Below, piece by piece: positions 1 to 36,688 of a DNA stretch of 64,000 nucleotides. The stretch is taken from sequence record NC_052652.1, one strand, 5' to 3'. Both the position numbers and the translations under genes were made by a program. Within the stretch, counting starts at the first letter, position 1, and the number at the start of each line of letters is the position of its first letter. The notes beneath the pieces were generated by a model. The model was not told the DNA's origin and ran no database searches. It saw only the letters and a list, made by a program, of their open reading frames with translations. This stretch comes from Escherichia phage vB_EcoM_PHB05.

Positions 1-71
1 AGCCTACTTTCTTAAAAGCGCAATAAATTAGAATTATCTTGATTTTTAGGACGTTTTATAGTATAGAAAAT

Positions 72-280
72 ATGCAAATGATAATCATTATCAACTATCT
101 TCCACGGGTGGCACTATTTCACGCAGGATCATTTCATTTGGCAAGGTGTATATAGATGTTTAGAAATGCCAAGCCATTGATTTACTTAGAATTTATCTTT
201 TTTGTTGTGAGTAATGCCTTTCTTGCTCAGAAAATAATCAAAAGTCTTATAAGTCATTGAATGATAATGCAAATGATAAT
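72..280. repeat. 14-bp direct repeat ATGCAAATGATAAT (72-85 and 267-280) in 5' noncoding region
   Basis: Exact 14-mer seen twice about 195 bp apart in ORF-free region. Confidence 0.5.
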
Positions 281-406
281 AATTCTCATTGATATTTGAG
301 GGGGACGGTCAGCAGAAATCGGGGGGCGCTGAAAATCGCGTTAAGCACCTCTCGCAAGCGAGCAGTATTTTGCGGCAAGTTATTGATATTATTGACTTTA
401 CGCTTA

Positions 407-11532: not shown

Positions 11533-11537
11533 CACAT

Positions 11538-11560
11538 AAACCCGCTTCGGCGGGTTTTCT
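11538..11560 (+). terminator. rho-independent terminator
   Basis: Hairpin AAACCCGC-TTCG-GCGGGTTT followed by TTCTTG. Confidence 0.6.
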
Positions 11561-12285: not shown

Positions 12286-12308
12286 AAGAAAAGGGGCTTT
12301 CGCCCCCT
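12286..12308 (-). terminator. terminator/attenuator hairpin (GGGGCTTTCGCCCC family)
   Basis: GC hairpin followed on - strand by TTTTCTT; same motif recurs at about 23575 and 36665. Confidence 0.5.
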
Positions 12309-12316
12309 TGGTTAAG

Positions 12317-15917: not shown

Positions 15918-15942
15918 ACAAAAAACCCGCCGAAGCGGGTTT
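15918..15942 (-). terminator. rho-independent terminator
   Basis: Hairpin AAACCCGC-CGAA-GCGGGTTT with T-run on - strand. Confidence 0.55.
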
Positions 15943-15945
15943 ATA

Positions 15946-16203
15946 TCATTCTACAGGTATTTCTTCACCAAGAGAAACTTCCAAACGGAATGCTTTACTT
16001 TCAATACATTCACTACCTTTTAAGAAATCGAATTGCACTATAGACTGACTTAATAGAATAGATAGAATCACATCGCAATCTTCACTAGGAGCCAGATGTT
16101 TGTATTCTTCCTTCAAGGTAACATCATAAAAACATAAATCCCCTACTCCTAGTTCATCCCATCCTTCCCACGCATCTACAAAGTTAAACTCTAAACCTTT
16201 CAT
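15946..16203 (-). CDS. hypothetical protein
   Basis: 85-aa ORF. Confidence 0.45.
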   Translation of the reverse strand: MKGLEFNFVDAWEGWDELGVGDLCFYDVTLKEEYKHLAPSEDCDVILSILLSQSIVQFDFLKGSECIESKAFRLEVSLGEEIPVE

Positions 16204-19490: not shown

Positions 19491-20153
19491 TTATTTAATA
19501 TTCAATTTTGCACAAAGACGTTGTACCGCTTTGGCATCGAACAAACTCCCACGAATAGTTCTCTTTCCTGATTCATTCAGATGCTTTGCAATCGTCATAT
19601 ATGGCGTTTTACAAGCTCTGTATGCAACTAAAGAATCTTTTAAAGAAAGTGCAAACTCTTTTGAGCGTTTTGCTTCTTCCGTTTTCGTATAATCTGTTCT
19701 TTTGTATTTAGGGTTTGCTGCACCAAGAAGCGTTCCCTTCGCTTTTGCTACCTTAAGGCTCTTCTTAACACGATCAGATATTGCACGAGCCTCTTCTTCT
19801 GCCAGAACTGCTAAAATATTTATTATCATATTTTCAGCGGAGGGCATAGTTGCTATCCGTACATTAATCATCTCTAACAAGGTTGCAACAGAAGCTGTGT
19901 TACGTCCAAGACGGTCAACCTTAGCAACAACAAGTGTAGCACCTGTTTCTTTGCAAAGATTAACAGCTTTTACAAGCTCTCTACGTTGCTTCCAATCGCC
20001 TTTACCAGAATAAAACTCTGCAAAGCTACCTACAATAGTATAATTTTCTTGTGAATCCAGGAAGCGTTGGATATCTGCTTCCTGTGATTCTATACCATAC
20101 TGGTTGCCTTGTTGTTTCTTCTTAGAAAGTCGATGATACAGTACAAACTTCAT
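19491..20153 (-). CDS. serine recombinase (resolvase/invertase family)
   Basis: N-terminal YHRLSKKKQQ...ESQ...IQ and VAKVDRLGRNTASVATLL match resolvase catalytic domain blocks; C-terminal HTH-like region. Confidence 0.75.
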   Translation of the reverse strand: MKFVLYHRLSKKKQQGNQYGIESQEADIQRFLDSQENYTIVGSFAEFYSGKGDWKQRRELVKAVNLCKETGATLVVAKVDRLGRNTASVATLLEMINVRIATMPSAENMIINILAVLAEEEARAISDRVKKSLKVAKAKGTLLGAANPKYKRTDYTKTEEAKRSKEFALSLKDSLVAYRACKTPYMTIAKHLNESGKRTIRGSLFDAKAVQRLCAKLNIK

Positions 20154-20210
20154 AATACCCTCCTGTTCTGTTGCAGGAAGTATGCACTACCTTAATGTTA
20201 AAGTCAACAG

Positions 20211-20426
20211 TTAAGTAGTGGTAATATCATCCTCTTGAATAGCAGGGTCAACTTCTGCAAAGATAGCCTCTACAGGAATTTCTTCACCTGCTATTCTAGA
20301 AAGAAGCACTGAACCAATAGCTTTTGCGTGTTCTTCGGATTCCGCATAAACATTAGTTCCTGTGTCTTTTTTCTTAGTTTCGTTAAAATATACCAGATAG
20401 TAATTGTATGCCATTATTCTTCCCAA
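20211..20426 (-). CDS. hypothetical protein
   Basis: 71-aa ORF. Confidence 0.4.
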   Translation of the reverse strand: MGRIMAYNYYLVYFNETKKKDTGTNVYAESEEHAKAIGSVLLSRIAGEEIPVEAIFAEVDPAIQEDDITTT

Positions 20427-23574: not shown

Positions 23575-23596
23575 AAAAGGGGCTTTCGCCCCTTTG
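23575..23596 (-). terminator. rho-independent terminator (GGGGCTTTCGCCCC family)
   Basis: AAAAGGGGCTTTCGCCCCTTT hairpin with T-run downstream of endolysin gene on - strand. Confidence 0.6.
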
Positions 23597-28852: not shown

Positions 28853-29937
28853 TAAAAGTCTAACTCCTCGTCATCACTTACATCTTTATTTGCTGAATTC
28901 AGTTTGTAAGCTGTAATTTGGATCTCCTGTGCTGCTGCTTGAATTTGATCTGGGTTTAACCAAACATCCATCCAAGGCAGTGGACTTTTCTTCGGTGCAC
29001 GGAATTTGTGTTTCATTTTCAGTCTGCGATAGATAGGCGCAGCATTGAAGTAAACCCAAAGTTTGAACAACTCTGCGTTACCACCAACGATAACCCTTCC
29101 TTCACTAAACAGATAGTCACACCAATCTTCCTCTTGTCCAACTACCGTGTCAAGAATTTCTGTCAGAACGTCGATATTATCTTCGTATACTTTTCTCCAA
29201 ACAGGATCTTTCAGCAGTGCATCAATAATAGCATAATCCATTTTAACGTGCAATAGTTCATCCAACATAATTTTTTGAATGAGTTTAGCTGCACCTACAA
29301 ACAGTTGCTGCTCTGCTAAGGCAAATGTTGCAGCAAAAGAGGATATGAATTGAATGCCTTCCAGACCGATAAGTGCAATCATTCCTTTCAGGATCAGTAG
29401 ACGAAGGTTATCATCCTTCTCGATCAGACCTAGAGCATATTTATGTCCTGCCTCTGCCAGATCACTCATTACCTCTTCAACTATACCCATCCTCTGGAAG
29501 ATTCTTTCGTTCTCCATAATCTGATCGATAACTTCATTTGGATTAGGGATACACTGACGAATAATTTCAGAATATGTCAAAGCGTGTAAAACTTCCATTT
29601 CTGATTGCTTCATCATCATTGCACATGCTTCGTTGTTGCTTAAAAATGGTGCAAACAAAGTGATAATTGATTTAGCAAGTGAATCATTTTCCCATTGGAA
29701 AGATAGGTTTTTGATCATAACATCGTAGTTGCTTTTAGAACAAGCTACGAAATCTTTTCGTGTCTGATCTAAGTCTACTTCGTTTTCATCCCAATCTTGC
29801 TGTTTTTGTAGTTTGTACAGACGATGCATTTCTGGGTATGTTACATTAATAGAATCAAAAATACCTAACTGTTCTCCCAAAAATACAGGATAGAAACCTT
29901 CTTTGTAAGTGTCGTTGTATAAATTAATCGCTGCCAT
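28852..29937 (-). CDS. nrdB: ribonucleotide reductase small subunit (class Ia beta)
   Basis: Iron-ligand-type blocks EVLHALTYSE, GLEGIQFISSFAATFALAEQ, DELLHV; 361 aa. Confidence 0.85.
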   Translation of the reverse strand: MAAINLYNDTYKEGFYPVFLGEQLGIFDSINVTYPEMHRLYKLQKQQDWDENEVDLDQTRKDFVACSKSNYDVMIKNLSFQWENDSLAKSIITLFAPFLSNNEACAMMMKQSEMEVLHALTYSEIIRQCIPNPNEVIDQIMENERIFQRMGIVEEVMSDLAEAGHKYALGLIEKDDNLRLLILKGMIALIGLEGIQFISSFAATFALAEQQLFVGAAKLIQKIMLDELLHVKMDYAIIDALLKDPVWRKVYEDNIDVLTEILDTVVGQEEDWCDYLFSEGRVIVGGNAELFKLWVYFNAAPIYRRLKMKHKFRAPKKSPLPWMDVWLNPDQIQAAAQEIQITAYKLNSANKDVSDDEELDF

Positions 29938-30259
29938 TTAAATCCTCCACAATATCACACATTGCTTTTATTGTATCAATGTGTTTTCTCTCCATACCAT
30001 TCTCTATGTAAGCCTTCTCTAATGCGTTCCATACACTCTTTGTGAGTAGTACAGTAACCTCTCCATCATATCTTGCCCTGGTTAAAGCATACCAGGTAGC
30101 TTCTGGATCATTGGAAGCCCATATTTCAACACTGGAAAATTGAAAACCTGCAATATAATGACAACACCAATCGAATGTAAAATCTTTACTATCTACCAGT
30201 GTATAATTTCCCCAACGTCTTTGTGGGGTTGCCCCAGGTAATACAACTAATGTAGGCAT
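29924..30259 (-). CDS. hypothetical protein between nrdA and nrdB
   Basis: Start refined to ATG 30259 with AAGGAGGAAT RBS. Confidence 0.45.
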   Translation of the reverse strand: MPTLVVLPGATPQRRWGNYTLVDSKDFTFDWCCHYIAGFQFSSVEIWASNDPEATWYALTRARYDGEVTVLLTKSVWNALEKAYIENGMERKHIDTIKAMCDIVEDLNGSD

Positions 30260-30275
30260 ATTCCTCCTTAAGAAA

Positions 30276-30296
30276 GGGGGACAAAGCCCCCTAGTT
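30276..30296 (-). terminator. hairpin terminator/attenuator after nrdA
   Basis: GGGGGACAAAGCCCCC hairpin followed on - strand by TTTCTT. Confidence 0.5.
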
Positions 30297-30299
30297 TCA

Positions 30300-32561
30300 T
30301 TACATCTTACAAGCCTCACAACCAGATTCTTCATCTTCTTGAGCGAGTGAGGTTGCCGATTTTGTTCTACTATTTAGATAGTACAAAGATTTACCACCAA
30401 GTTTTGCAAACTGAAGGATATATTGCATTTCTGATTTAATGGATAAACGACCACCTTCCATCTTAGAATAGTCAATCCACTTATCACATGATGCACCTTG
30501 ATCTAAGAATTTAGTCAATAATCCATATGCTTCAGCCATATCTTTATCTGGCGTATCCCAAGCCGATTGGTAAATATCTTTTAGTTTATCATAGTCTGGC
30601 ACAATAAATAGGACATTACCTTTTTGGCTTTGTTTATAAACTATAGTATCACGTACAGGATACACAGAGTTAGTCGTATTACTTACGAGACTACTGGACT
30701 CATTCGGAGCAATAGCTGCTAATACACTATTTCGGATACCGCCTTGTGCAATGATATCTTGTCGTAAACCTTCCCAATCCATTTTAAGTTTAAAATTGCC
30801 AATATCGTCTACAGCTTTAGCGTAGGTATCAATAGGCAACCATCCTTCAGGCCATTTGGTTTTATGCATCCATTCTGCATTACCCTTCTCTTTTGCCAAA
30901 CGAAGAGAAGCTCTTGCTAACCAGTAATAATGCCTTTCTGCTAATTCGTGAATTAGTTTTTTGCCGTAAGGATCTGAATAAGTAACAAAATTACTTGCCA
31001 GATAATGTGCAAGGTTTGTAATACCTACACCGATAGACCTACGTGCTTTAGCAGTGATTTCGTTATGTTTAAACGGATACTGCATTGTTTCAATAACATT
31101 ATCAATAGTTAGAACTGTATAATATGCAACATCTTCATATTCTTCTGGTGTAACACGACCAGCTACAATAGAAGACAGGAAGCATAATGCCAATTCTTGA
31201 TCTTCTGTATTCTCACCTGTGAAAAGATCAGTCATATTGTGAAATGCTTTCGTAGGTAAGAAAATTTCTTGGCACAAGTTTGACTGATAAATAACATCCT
31301 TAAACGGAGTATGCCTATTAGCATTATCCGCAAAGAACATATAAATACGTCCTGTCTCTGCTCTTTGTGTAATAATTTCTGCCAGAAGATCTCGTGCTTT
31401 TACAAACTTCTTCTTAATACGTTTGCGACTAACTTTTTCATATACTTCTTCAAACTCTTCCTCGCTTTTATAAAGCGCCTCATAGAGTTCTGGTGCTTCG
31501 TCATAACTAACTAGCATCCAATCTTTACCTTTTGCTGCACGGCGCAGGAAAGCATTGTTTACTACGATAGAGTAATCAAGTTTATCTACTCGTTTTTCAC
31601 TAACAGTAGTTGGGTTTTTCAAACGTACCAGATCTTCAAAATCAGGTTCTAATATTGTAAACGTTACTGTTGCACTTCCACCACGACTTGCTTGTTTTGA
31701 TGCTCCAACACTTGTCTCCATCCATTTCAGATATGGTAAAAGACCACCGTGAACAATACGGTTGTTCTTAACACCTTGTCCTGTAGCACGGGTTTGGAGG
31801 TTAACACCAATACCTGCATTATTCAATGTATATTCATGCGCAAGATAGTTAGCAATTGCTAAAGATTCTGCTGTATCATCTGCTCTAAACAGACAACAAG
31901 AAGCACTACCTTTAATCTTAGTACGCAAAGTTGTTAAATAAGGCGATGGTAAATTAATCTTAAGATCACTTACGTAGGTATATAGACGTTTAATGTCTTC
32001 TACTCTGCGATCTTTTGGTTGGATTTCCATTACCTTCATTGCTACACCAATGAATAAAAACTGTGGTGATTCAAAAACAACATCATTGATCGCATCTTTC
32101 ACAAGATACTTATCAACCATCTGGCGCAGTACGGAATAACCATAAGTTAGGTTTTTATCGTGATTGACAATTTTACCAATCTCAATAATTTCTTCTTCTG
32201 TATAATCCATTTTTCCCCAATAGCCTTTACTTACAGACATATTGTAGAAATCCAGGAGGGAGGGGATATTGTGATATCCCCCATGAGCCTGTTTATAAAT
32301 CATACCAAGAAGTAACCGACCTGCCATATCACTATATGCCTGATCTTTCTTATCAATACATGCTGCTATCATAGCTTTATGTAAATCACGAGTAGGCACA
32401 CCGTCGTAACAACGTTTAACAGCTTCAAGTTCAATTTCAGACCAATTTAATTTACCAGCAGCAAACTCTGACCATTTACGAAGTTTTTCTGGATTAAATT
32501 CTTCTTTCTTGCCGTTTGTTTTTGTTACATAACGGATAGATTTGCTTAGATACTGAGTCAC
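30300..32561 (-). CDS. nrdA: ribonucleotide reductase large subunit (class Ia alpha)
   Basis: 753 aa, N-terminal ATP-cone-like region, C-terminal CEAC redox tail, adjacent nrdB. Confidence 0.9.
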   Translation of the reverse strand: MTQYLSKSIRYVTKTNGKKEEFNPEKLRKWSEFAAGKLNWSEIELEAVKRCYDGVPTRDLHKAMIAACIDKKDQAYSDMAGRLLLGMIYKQAHGGYHNIPSLLDFYNMSVSKGYWGKMDYTEEEIIEIGKIVNHDKNLTYGYSVLRQMVDKYLVKDAINDVVFESPQFLFIGVAMKVMEIQPKDRRVEDIKRLYTYVSDLKINLPSPYLTTLRTKIKGSASCCLFRADDTAESLAIANYLAHEYTLNNAGIGVNLQTRATGQGVKNNRIVHGGLLPYLKWMETSVGASKQASRGGSATVTFTILEPDFEDLVRLKNPTTVSEKRVDKLDYSIVVNNAFLRRAAKGKDWMLVSYDEAPELYEALYKSEEEFEEVYEKVSRKRIKKKFVKARDLLAEIITQRAETGRIYMFFADNANRHTPFKDVIYQSNLCQEIFLPTKAFHNMTDLFTGENTEDQELALCFLSSIVAGRVTPEEYEDVAYYTVLTIDNVIETMQYPFKHNEITAKARRSIGVGITNLAHYLASNFVTYSDPYGKKLIHELAERHYYWLARASLRLAKEKGNAEWMHKTKWPEGWLPIDTYAKAVDDIGNFKLKMDWEGLRQDIIAQGGIRNSVLAAIAPNESSSLVSNTTNSVYPVRDTIVYKQSQKGNVLFIVPDYDKLKDIYQSAWDTPDKDMAEAYGLLTKFLDQGASCDKWIDYSKMEGGRLSIKSEMQYILQFAKLGGKSLYYLNSRTKSATSLAQEDEESGCEACKM

Positions 32562-36664: not shown

Positions 36665-36688
36665 TAAAGGGGCTTTCGCCCCTTTTTA
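36665..36688 (-). terminator. rho-independent terminator (GGGGCTTTCGCCCC family)
   Basis: AAAGGGGCTTTCGCCCCTTTTTATT hairpin with T-runs both sides. Confidence 0.6.

Follow-up and report, generated by a model that had tools for sequence, protein, structure and literature searches.

The recombinase gene and its upstream region

We have analyzed a gene for a predicted serine recombinase in Escherichia phage vB_EcoM_PHB05 (NC_052652.1), using a stretch of 64,000 nucleotides of its genome that is referred to throughout as the window. The gene occupies positions 19491–20153 of the minus strand, where an open reading frame (ORF) of 220 amino acids begins with ATG and ends with TAA, the stop codon being included in these coordinates. 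These 64 kb form the left part of the genome of a Justusliebigvirus (phi92-like, Stephanstirmvirinae). Nucleotides 1–64,387 of phage phi92 align with it from end to end with an identity of 95–98.6% per segment, and position 1 of the window is the exact start of the left direct terminal repeat (DTR), which is 343 bp in length and 95% identical to the DTR of phi92. The complete phi92 genome is 148.6 kb long and carries 343-bp DTRs, so that its two ends are directly repeated.

The phi92 orthologue is gp053, and the two proteins are 100% identical. Public records already name gp053 'putative recombinase, resolvase family protein / DNA invertase', a generic label for a gene whose superfamily is well known. 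A first-pass annotation, made from the letters of the window, had placed a 220-amino acid protein of the resolvase/invertase family at 19491–20153, among early/middle genes in a genome of virulent type. The assignment is confirmed by the ORF, by matches to PF00239 and PHROG 125 and by fold matches, and the operon context described below agrees with an early/middle position in a virulent-type genome.

The ATG is preceded by a ribosome-binding site, AGGAGG, at 20159–20164 on the minus strand, and a ribosome-binding site is annotated in phi92 also. Within the 57-nt gap upstream of the gene a consensus scan finds a putative sigma-70-like promoter, TTGACT-N17-CATACT, at 20179–20207 on the minus strand. 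Such sites are no more numerous in the region than chance would give. At the same upstream place five lineages, including the Klebsiella, Phapecoctavirus, Vibrio and Shewanella orthologues, have a TTGAC[AT]-N16/17 site. From these motifs we infer that the gene may be transcribed early, from a promoter of its own.

A dyad scan of the same strand finds an imperfect 32-bp dyad with 11 of 16 positions paired at 20187–20218, centered at −49 and lying over the −35 element and the spacer. Its score is above the 99.5th percentile of a 12-kb background, but about 0.16 such sites would be expected in the 330 positions examined, and we take it as a weak candidate for an operator or binding site. A second upstream 32-bp dyad, with 10 of 16 pairs, is centered at −125. 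The upstream dyads are not conserved in relatives, and no res site with subsites was found adjoining the gene.

Domain structure and relation to known serine recombinases

The sole Pfam match of the protein is to PF00239 (Resolvase, N-terminal domain), with residues 4–141 aligned on positions 2–144/145 of the profile at E = 8.4e-22 and 78.3 bits against a cutoff of 23.3. The protein also matches PHROG 125, 'DNA invertase' (1e-31), and PHROG 95, 'integrase' (1e-25), the latter through the catalytic domain that these families have in common. In an alignment of 26 relatives having 31–88% identity, D80, R81, R84, E121, R128 and G140 are invariant and Y6, R8 and S10 nearly so, and the catalytic set Y6, R8, S10, D80, R81, R84, E121 and R128 is complete. 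The first six of these align onto what we take to be Y6, R8, S10, D67, R68 and R71 of gamma-delta resolvase. The two motifs picked out by the first-pass annotation are present, YHRLSKKKQQ as residues 6–15 and VDRLGRNTA as residues 79–87. That annotation had named loss of the catalytic serine as a finding that would count against it; Ser10 (codon TCT at 20124–20126, minus strand) and its partner residues are all in place.

An AlphaFold2 model (pLDDT 88) contains an alpha/beta catalytic domain, the long helix E, a flexible linker and four C-terminal helices. The catalytic domain comprises residues 1–100 (19854–20153, minus strand), as judged from the modeled secondary structure, the family alignment and structural matches to Sin and gamma-delta resolvase, and it carries Y6, R8, S10, D80, R81 and R84. 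Helix E, residues 108–138 (19740–19832, minus strand), would form the dimer/tetramer interface and bears the invariant E121 and R128. The C-terminal helices lie at residues 155–170, 172–180, 185–194 and 207–216, and together make a predicted DNA-binding domain of residues 155–216 (19506–19691, minus strand).

The best Foldseek match in the Protein Data Bank (PDB) is Bxb1 integrase (9iu2_A, E = 2e-7, 257 aligned columns), and this match spans the C-terminal domain; further matches are to Sin, gamma-delta resolvase and PhiC31 integrase. PF07508 ('Recombinase') is matched by 19 of the 26 family members, at best with 3e-7, over positions of about 14–51 of its 102. Matches in NCBIfam are all below threshold, to CcrB, Mpi and YneB, the best being CcrB, where residues 4–212 align on 10–225 of 542. 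Sequence matches in the PDB are to the Tn552 Bin3/Sin-like protein 2r0q (1e-5), to Tn3 and gamma-delta resolvase, and to Gin (3uj3, 8e-4). No HTH_7 domain was found with Pfam, and neither Pfam nor the model reveals a zinc ribbon or a coiled coil in the 220 residues.

Taken together, Pfam, fold and alignment indicate a compact recombinase, in which a catalytic domain like that of the large serine recombinases (LSRs) is followed by only the initial helical module of the recombinase domain found in LSRs. By these comparisons the ORF encodes a predicted small serine recombinase with a complete catalytic set, and its C-terminal four-helix domain is related to the start of the LSR 'recombinase domain'. 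When the C-terminal 80 residues are used as the sole query they retrieve six proteins among 1.84 billion representatives, from which we take the DNA-binding module to be narrow in distribution and fast-evolving. Two 77-amino acid proteins (P0084 and P0085; 62% and 47% identity) consist of the C-terminal module by itself, and may be either stand-alone genes or fragments of broken recombinase genes. An LSR-like enzyme of 220 residues with a minimal DNA-binding domain may be of interest for recombinase engineering.

The protein shares with the small serine resolvases (Tn3, gamma-delta, Sin, beta) the catalytic domain and its residues, the long helix E, a length of about 200 amino acids, a catalytic-domain fold like that of Sin and, in the function proposed below, deletion between direct repeats. 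It differs from them in having about 25% identity, in being shorter after helix D, in lacking the HTH_7-type C-terminal domain and in possessing, past the catalytic serine, the extra segment G-x-[SY]-G-x-x-S-Q seen in large serine recombinases; moreover, the gene lies in an operon of a virulent phage rather than in a transposon or plasmid, and no adjoining res site with subsites was found. To the large serine integrases (Bxb1, PhiC31, TP901-1) and CcrB it is linked by its best fold match and by the start of PF07508 in its relatives, whereas those proteins have 450–600 amino acids and include the remainder of the recombinase domain, the zinc ribbon and the coiled coil. In large integrases these missing parts select attP and attB and control the direction of the reaction. 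With Hin, Gin, Cin and Pin, of which Mu Gin and P1 Cin are phage-borne, the protein has the serine recombinase catalytic domain in common; it differs in its weak similarity (Gin, as above), the lack of HTH_7, the lack of inverted crossover sites and the lack of orientation polymorphism. Unlike IS607-type transposases it has no N-terminal MerR-like helix-turn-helix, the catalytic domain beginning at residue 1 and the DNA-binding domain being C-terminal.

The domain structure bears directly on whether the enzyme might be an integrase, by which the phage could enter a concealed lysogenic or plasmid-prophage state. The PHROG 95 match could be read in that way, as could the output of BACPHLIP, which called 19 of 55 members of the Phapecoctavirus/Justusliebigvirus cluster temperate (bioRxiv 10.1101/2024.12.31.630880). 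Against this, the protein stops after four helices at 220 residues, with no large integrase C-terminal domain, as the first-pass annotation had said. It had also recognized no repressor, and the phi92 annotation agrees, listing no integrase, repressor, excisionase, partition or replication-initiator gene. We found no attP in phi92, and when the 6-kb gene region was compared with 5,426 complete E. coli genomes there was no match, and thus no phi92-like prophage DNA among them. In a screen of 267,000 Escherichia assemblies this cluster was retained as one of the 'persistent virulent phages', and no convincing plasmid replication or partition functions were seen across the 373 phages retained (bioRxiv 10.1101/2024.12.31.630880). 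We therefore regard an integrase of this kind as extremely unlikely. The recombinase gene may itself be what lies behind the temperate calls of BACPHLIP. This matters in practice, as the Stephanstirmvirinae (phi92-like and phAPEC8-like phages) are popular candidates for therapy and biocontrol, and a recombinase gene triggers lifestyle classifiers; the lack of integrase domains and of prophage copies in the E. coli genomes removes this false alarm of lysogeny. In some publications on these phages a recombinase is said to be absent, and another merely lists an 'invertase'.

Conservation and proposed function

The gene region is present in 54 of 54 Justusliebigvirus records, with a protein identity of 99% or more. 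The gene of the window differs from that of phi92 by eight synonymous and no non-synonymous changes, and nearly all differences across Justusliebigvirus genomes are synonymous. Full-length relatives are found in Klebsiella phages (78% identity), Phapecoctavirus (57%), Vibrio and Shewanella phages (35–49%) and metagenomic contigs of 135–157 kb. In all these lineages the gene is co-directional with its neighbors in tightly packed early/middle operons of lytic-phage type, the companions across lineages being DNA ligase, DprA-like protein, NAMPT, PRPP synthase, rIIB and Dam. It is a fixed gene, under purifying selection, of a virulent phage lineage, lying in an early/middle DNA-metabolism operon. 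An earlier suggestion that it could be the remnant of a mobile element is not borne out, since the gene is intact, selected and conserved across genera. That a recombinase should be under selection in several virulent lineages implies a real DNA transaction in lytic or persistent infection.

A Klebsiella relative shares its complete gene order with phi92. Phapecoctavirus ESCO13 has the recombinase gene alone among homologues of the left-end early genes of phi92, with no neighbor in common, and in more distant relatives the recombinase is the only gene shared with phi92. The early region differs between genera, no conserved partner gene was found in any comparison, and the neighbors do not travel with the recombinase; gp047, gp051, gp052, gp054 and gp055 gave no Pfam or PADLOC matches. 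In this respect the gene behaves like a cassette of one gene, complete in itself.

Two variants deserve notice. In Klebsiella phage 05F01 the recombinase at the syntenic position (LC483177.1, 129776–130447) is a chimera. Its catalytic domain comes from another serine recombinase clade (40 of 132 residues identical, 30%) and has a better Pfam score, whereas its C-terminal domain (53 of 88 identical, 60%) is as close to the window protein as that of an ordinary orthologue. The exchange suggests that catalysis and the predicted DNA specificity have both been retained. In phage Schickermooser (NC_048196.1, at about 1080–1746 of the locus extract) the gene contains several frameshifts and only the C-terminal 128 codons are annotated, which points either to a pseudogene or to errors in sequencing.

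These observations could be explained if the gene, together with its promoter, were an accessory cassette spreading horizontally among large virulent phages, with a benefit unrelated to genome topology, or largely selfish. The relocation in ESCO13 without a partner gene, the sharing of the recombinase alone with distant relatives, the 05F01 catalytic exchange (which requires recombination with other recombinase genes), the frameshifted Schickermooser copy and the promoter-like site upstream all fit such a cassette. Self-mobilization would require flanking sites, however, and no conserved flanking repeats are seen across lineages; moreover, all 54 genomes of the genus have the gene at a single fixed locus, under strong purifying selection. 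On balance we consider this explanation unlikely.

The names in databases, the PHROG 125 match and the weak match to the Mpi master invertase family in NCBIfam (33 bits against a cutoff of 272) raise the further possibility of a DNA invertase flipping a segment of the phage, as a tail-fiber or promoter switch like those of Mu Gin and P1 Cin. The first-pass annotation had suggested an invertase acting on a switch elsewhere, and had proposed a genome-wide search for inverted repeats. When run on the window and on the complete phi92 genome, this search found no inverted-repeat pair bracketing a cassette, and no invertible segment at the tail-fiber genes or elsewhere. The inverted matches that are present comprise short palindromic terminators, promoter-like motifs of genes on opposite strands, and one 143-nt match of 72% identity (phi92 117690/134092) that corresponds to the AAA-ATPase genes gp190 and gp221. 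Comparison of phi92 with the complete genomes of alia, A150 and VEcB, and with partial sequences (the window, PD06, J-01 and arall), shows them to be collinear with it, none of these three complete and four partial sequences having an inverted match to phi92 of more than 30 nt, and the 25-kb tail-fiber module is collinear in about 54 records; since assembled genomes were used, rare or minority inversions would be detectable only in raw reads. Matches at two places in J-01 and in cardinal had the look of rearrangements; of the two, J-01 was compared directly and is collinear.

The remaining evidence also goes against inversion. There is no HTH_7 domain and the similarity to Gin is weak, and among 80 related genes in IMG/VR we found no consistent inverted or direct repeat architecture adjoining the gene. 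Phages of phi92 type show several receptor-binding proteins at once (PMC11984140), which would make a switch unnecessary. An invertase is thus highly improbable, and the data support neither an inversion switch nor a lysogeny integrase.

We propose instead, with a probability that we put at about 0.3, that gp053 and its orthologues are early resolvase-type enzymes that use one site per genome copy, and that they resolve multimers or concatemers or cyclize the ends of the DTR-bounded genome. The first-pass annotation had taken a lack of paired recombination sites anywhere in the genome to be a refutation, and this does not hold for a resolvase. A resolvase requires a single site per monomer, so the absence of paired sites fits an enzyme of this type. 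Several further lines of evidence point in the same direction. Outside phages, the closest relatives are full-length 'recombinase family' genes with 35% identity on small plasmids of 6–20 kb, where multimer resolution would be expected, and a distant relative is found on a contig of 5.3 kb with 104 nt repeated at its ends, as would fit a small circular element. The neighbors of the phage gene are DNA-metabolism genes, and the genome has directly repeated ends. Its catalytic set is intact, and the purifying selection, the conservation in every record of the genus and the 05F01 domain exchange are further points in favor. Finally, the Phapecoctavirus/Justusliebigvirus cluster has been reported to persist (bioRxiv 10.1101/2024.12.31.630880).

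In the mechanism that we envisage, the gene would be transcribed early from its own sigma-70-type promoter, and a dimer of the protein would bind one cognate site per genome copy. Directly repeated copies of the site would arise in circular multimers, in head-to-tail concatemers, or at the two ends of the DTR-bounded virion DNA, and deletion-type recombination between them would give monomers or circles that serve as templates in replication, packaging or persistence. Presumably the standard chemistry would apply, with attack by Ser10, double-strand breaks with 2-nt overhangs, 5'-phosphoserine linkages, rotation of subunits by 180 degrees and religation. A functional analogue, and no closer relation, is Cre-lox of phage P1, a site-specific recombination system that circularizes terminally redundant DNA and resolves multimers; it differs in that Cre belongs to the tyrosine recombinases and P1 is a temperate phage. 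In the DTR of phi92 type, where the recognizable motifs are Fur boxes and a promoter, no lox-like site was identified.

A number of results weigh against the proposed resolvase. The search for its recombination site gave none. A sliding identity window run between the window and a Klebsiella relative revealed no element near the gene conserved above the level of coding sequence. Comparison of the intergenic regions of phi92 with those of Klebsiella phage 05F01 gave terminator hairpins only, the non-coding DNA not being alignable. At least one lineage seems able to do without the gene, given the frameshifts in Schickermooser, unless these are sequencing errors. We know of no requirement for a site-specific resolvase in DTR phages, and found no functional experiments on this protein in the literature. 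Of the roles suggested in the first-pass annotation, concatemer or plasmid-like resolution is the one that we favor, tentatively.

The failure to find a target in the phage genome could also mean that the recombinase acts on DNA outside the phage genome (for instance in the chromosome or a resident prophage of the host, or on a plasmid or satellite) in host takeover or competition. The expected early expression would suit such a role, as would the retention of the C-terminal DNA-binding domain through the exchange of the catalytic domain. Yet the hosts are very different (Escherichia, Klebsiella, Vibrio and Shewanella) and the C-terminal domain is fast-evolving, and the protein matches no defense or anti-defense model. 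We regard this role as doubtful.

The first-pass annotation had recognized no att-like repeats. This holds for the att sites of an integrase as described above and requires qualification in one respect, since a pair of 20-nt direct repeats brackets the region of the gene. The right copy, at 20269–20288 and reading GGTGAAGAAATTCCTGTAGA on the minus strand, lies 116–135 nt upstream of the recombinase ATG, at the center of an imperfect 32-bp dyad (20263–20294, minus strand) with a central AT. The left copy, at 15950–15969 on the minus strand, matches at 19 of 20 positions in the window and lies in the last codons of a gp045-like ORF. The copies are in direct orientation, 4,319 nt apart, and the 4.3-kb block that they bound contains gp046, the DprA-like gp047, a Ser/Thr phosphatase, gp050–052 and the recombinase gene. 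The peptide encoded by the repeat is G-E-E-I-P-V-E, in two small ORFs that are not related to each other. Phage arall has an annotated 'repeat_region', which was set aside as a trivial 24-nt feature within a gene.

The two copies are candidate sites, and one may ask whether the recombinase excises the block as a circle, in a programmed or occasional manner, or whether an old insertion of the block left the repeats behind as a scar. The pair is sharply bounded, brackets the recombinase gene and is 19–20/20 identical in five genomes. In A150 it is one of two perfect direct repeats of at least 16 nt within 10 kb outside the repeated hairpin, Fur-box and tandem clusters, where a third-order Markov (Markov-3) null gives about 0.6 per genome, and the right copy has its dyad with the central AT. 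On the other side, the repeat is absent from relatives with 87% and 78% protein identity and the same gene order, the center of the left copy has drifted (ATA in the window, GTT in phi92), and the block is kept in all 54 records. The junctions predicted for deletion (GAATAGCA-[20-mer]-ATGATATAAACC) and for the circle (GTTTCTCTT-[20-mer]-GGCTATCTTTGC) were not found in public collections, a search of almost no power as these hold only two and one wild-type contigs. Excision or an insertion scar is accordingly very unlikely. As this pair, the only repeat pair around the gene, is specific to Justusliebigvirus, it cannot be a conserved target, and this too counts against the proposed resolvase; we treat the repeat as an unexplained candidate and not as a conserved target.

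If either the resolvase or the excision proposal were correct, nominally virulent large myoviruses would contain an unrecognized site-specific recombination step, namely cyclization of the DTR genome or multimer resolution, which could underlie carrier-type persistence, or excision of the 4.3-kb block. We think it unlikely that such a step exists. What is new here is modest: the miniature LSR-like architecture, the wide conservation of the gene across virulent phages, the variant with an exchanged domain, and the finding of support for neither inversion nor lysogeny.

Other features of the window and of phi92

After the DTR (window 1–343) there are about 350 nt more of non-coding DNA before the first gene. 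Within the non-coding DTR there are near-consensus Fur boxes (7-1-7 motif TGATAATnATTATCA) at window positions 79–93, where the match is exact, and 274–288. Clusters of Fur boxes occur in two further gene-free regions of phi92, at 136993–137083 and 147409/147467. In all there are 13 matches in phi92 against about 2.6 expected, and the clusters are kept in three other genomes. This suggests control of early promoters that responds to iron and Fur, or titration of host Fur. The palindromic clusters in the DTR and at 137 kb had been considered as sites for the recombinase and were rejected, given their exact match to the Fur 7-1-7 consensus and their odd center.

GC-rich palindromic hairpins of two families, AAAAGGGGCTTTCGCCCCTTT and ATAAACCCGCTTCGGCGGGTTTT, are found at operon boundaries at 12289–12309, 23575–23595 and 36665–36685, and also at 11536–11558 and 15922–15944. 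The first family is conserved in Klebsiella phage 05F01 as well. The hairpins are probably shared bidirectional terminators.

In phi92 the region 138.3–146.5 kb contains small plus-strand genes, each preceded by repeated modules of 20–40 nt with hairpins such as GGCGGGAAATGGTTTCCCGCC, and a 65-nt tandem repeat lies in a gene-free region at 136765–136896. The series of modules and the tandem repeat may be an array of early promoters and terminators and an origin-like region.

At 29924–30334, between its nrdB- and nrdA-like genes, the window carries an ORF of 136 amino acids, where phi92 has the 219-amino acid HNH endonuclease gp074. The difference at this site is a presence/absence polymorphism typical of homing endonucleases. 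Lastly, a cluster of 14 tRNA genes lies on the plus strand at 51384–54155, and tRNAs were the only RNAs returned by an Rfam scan of the window.

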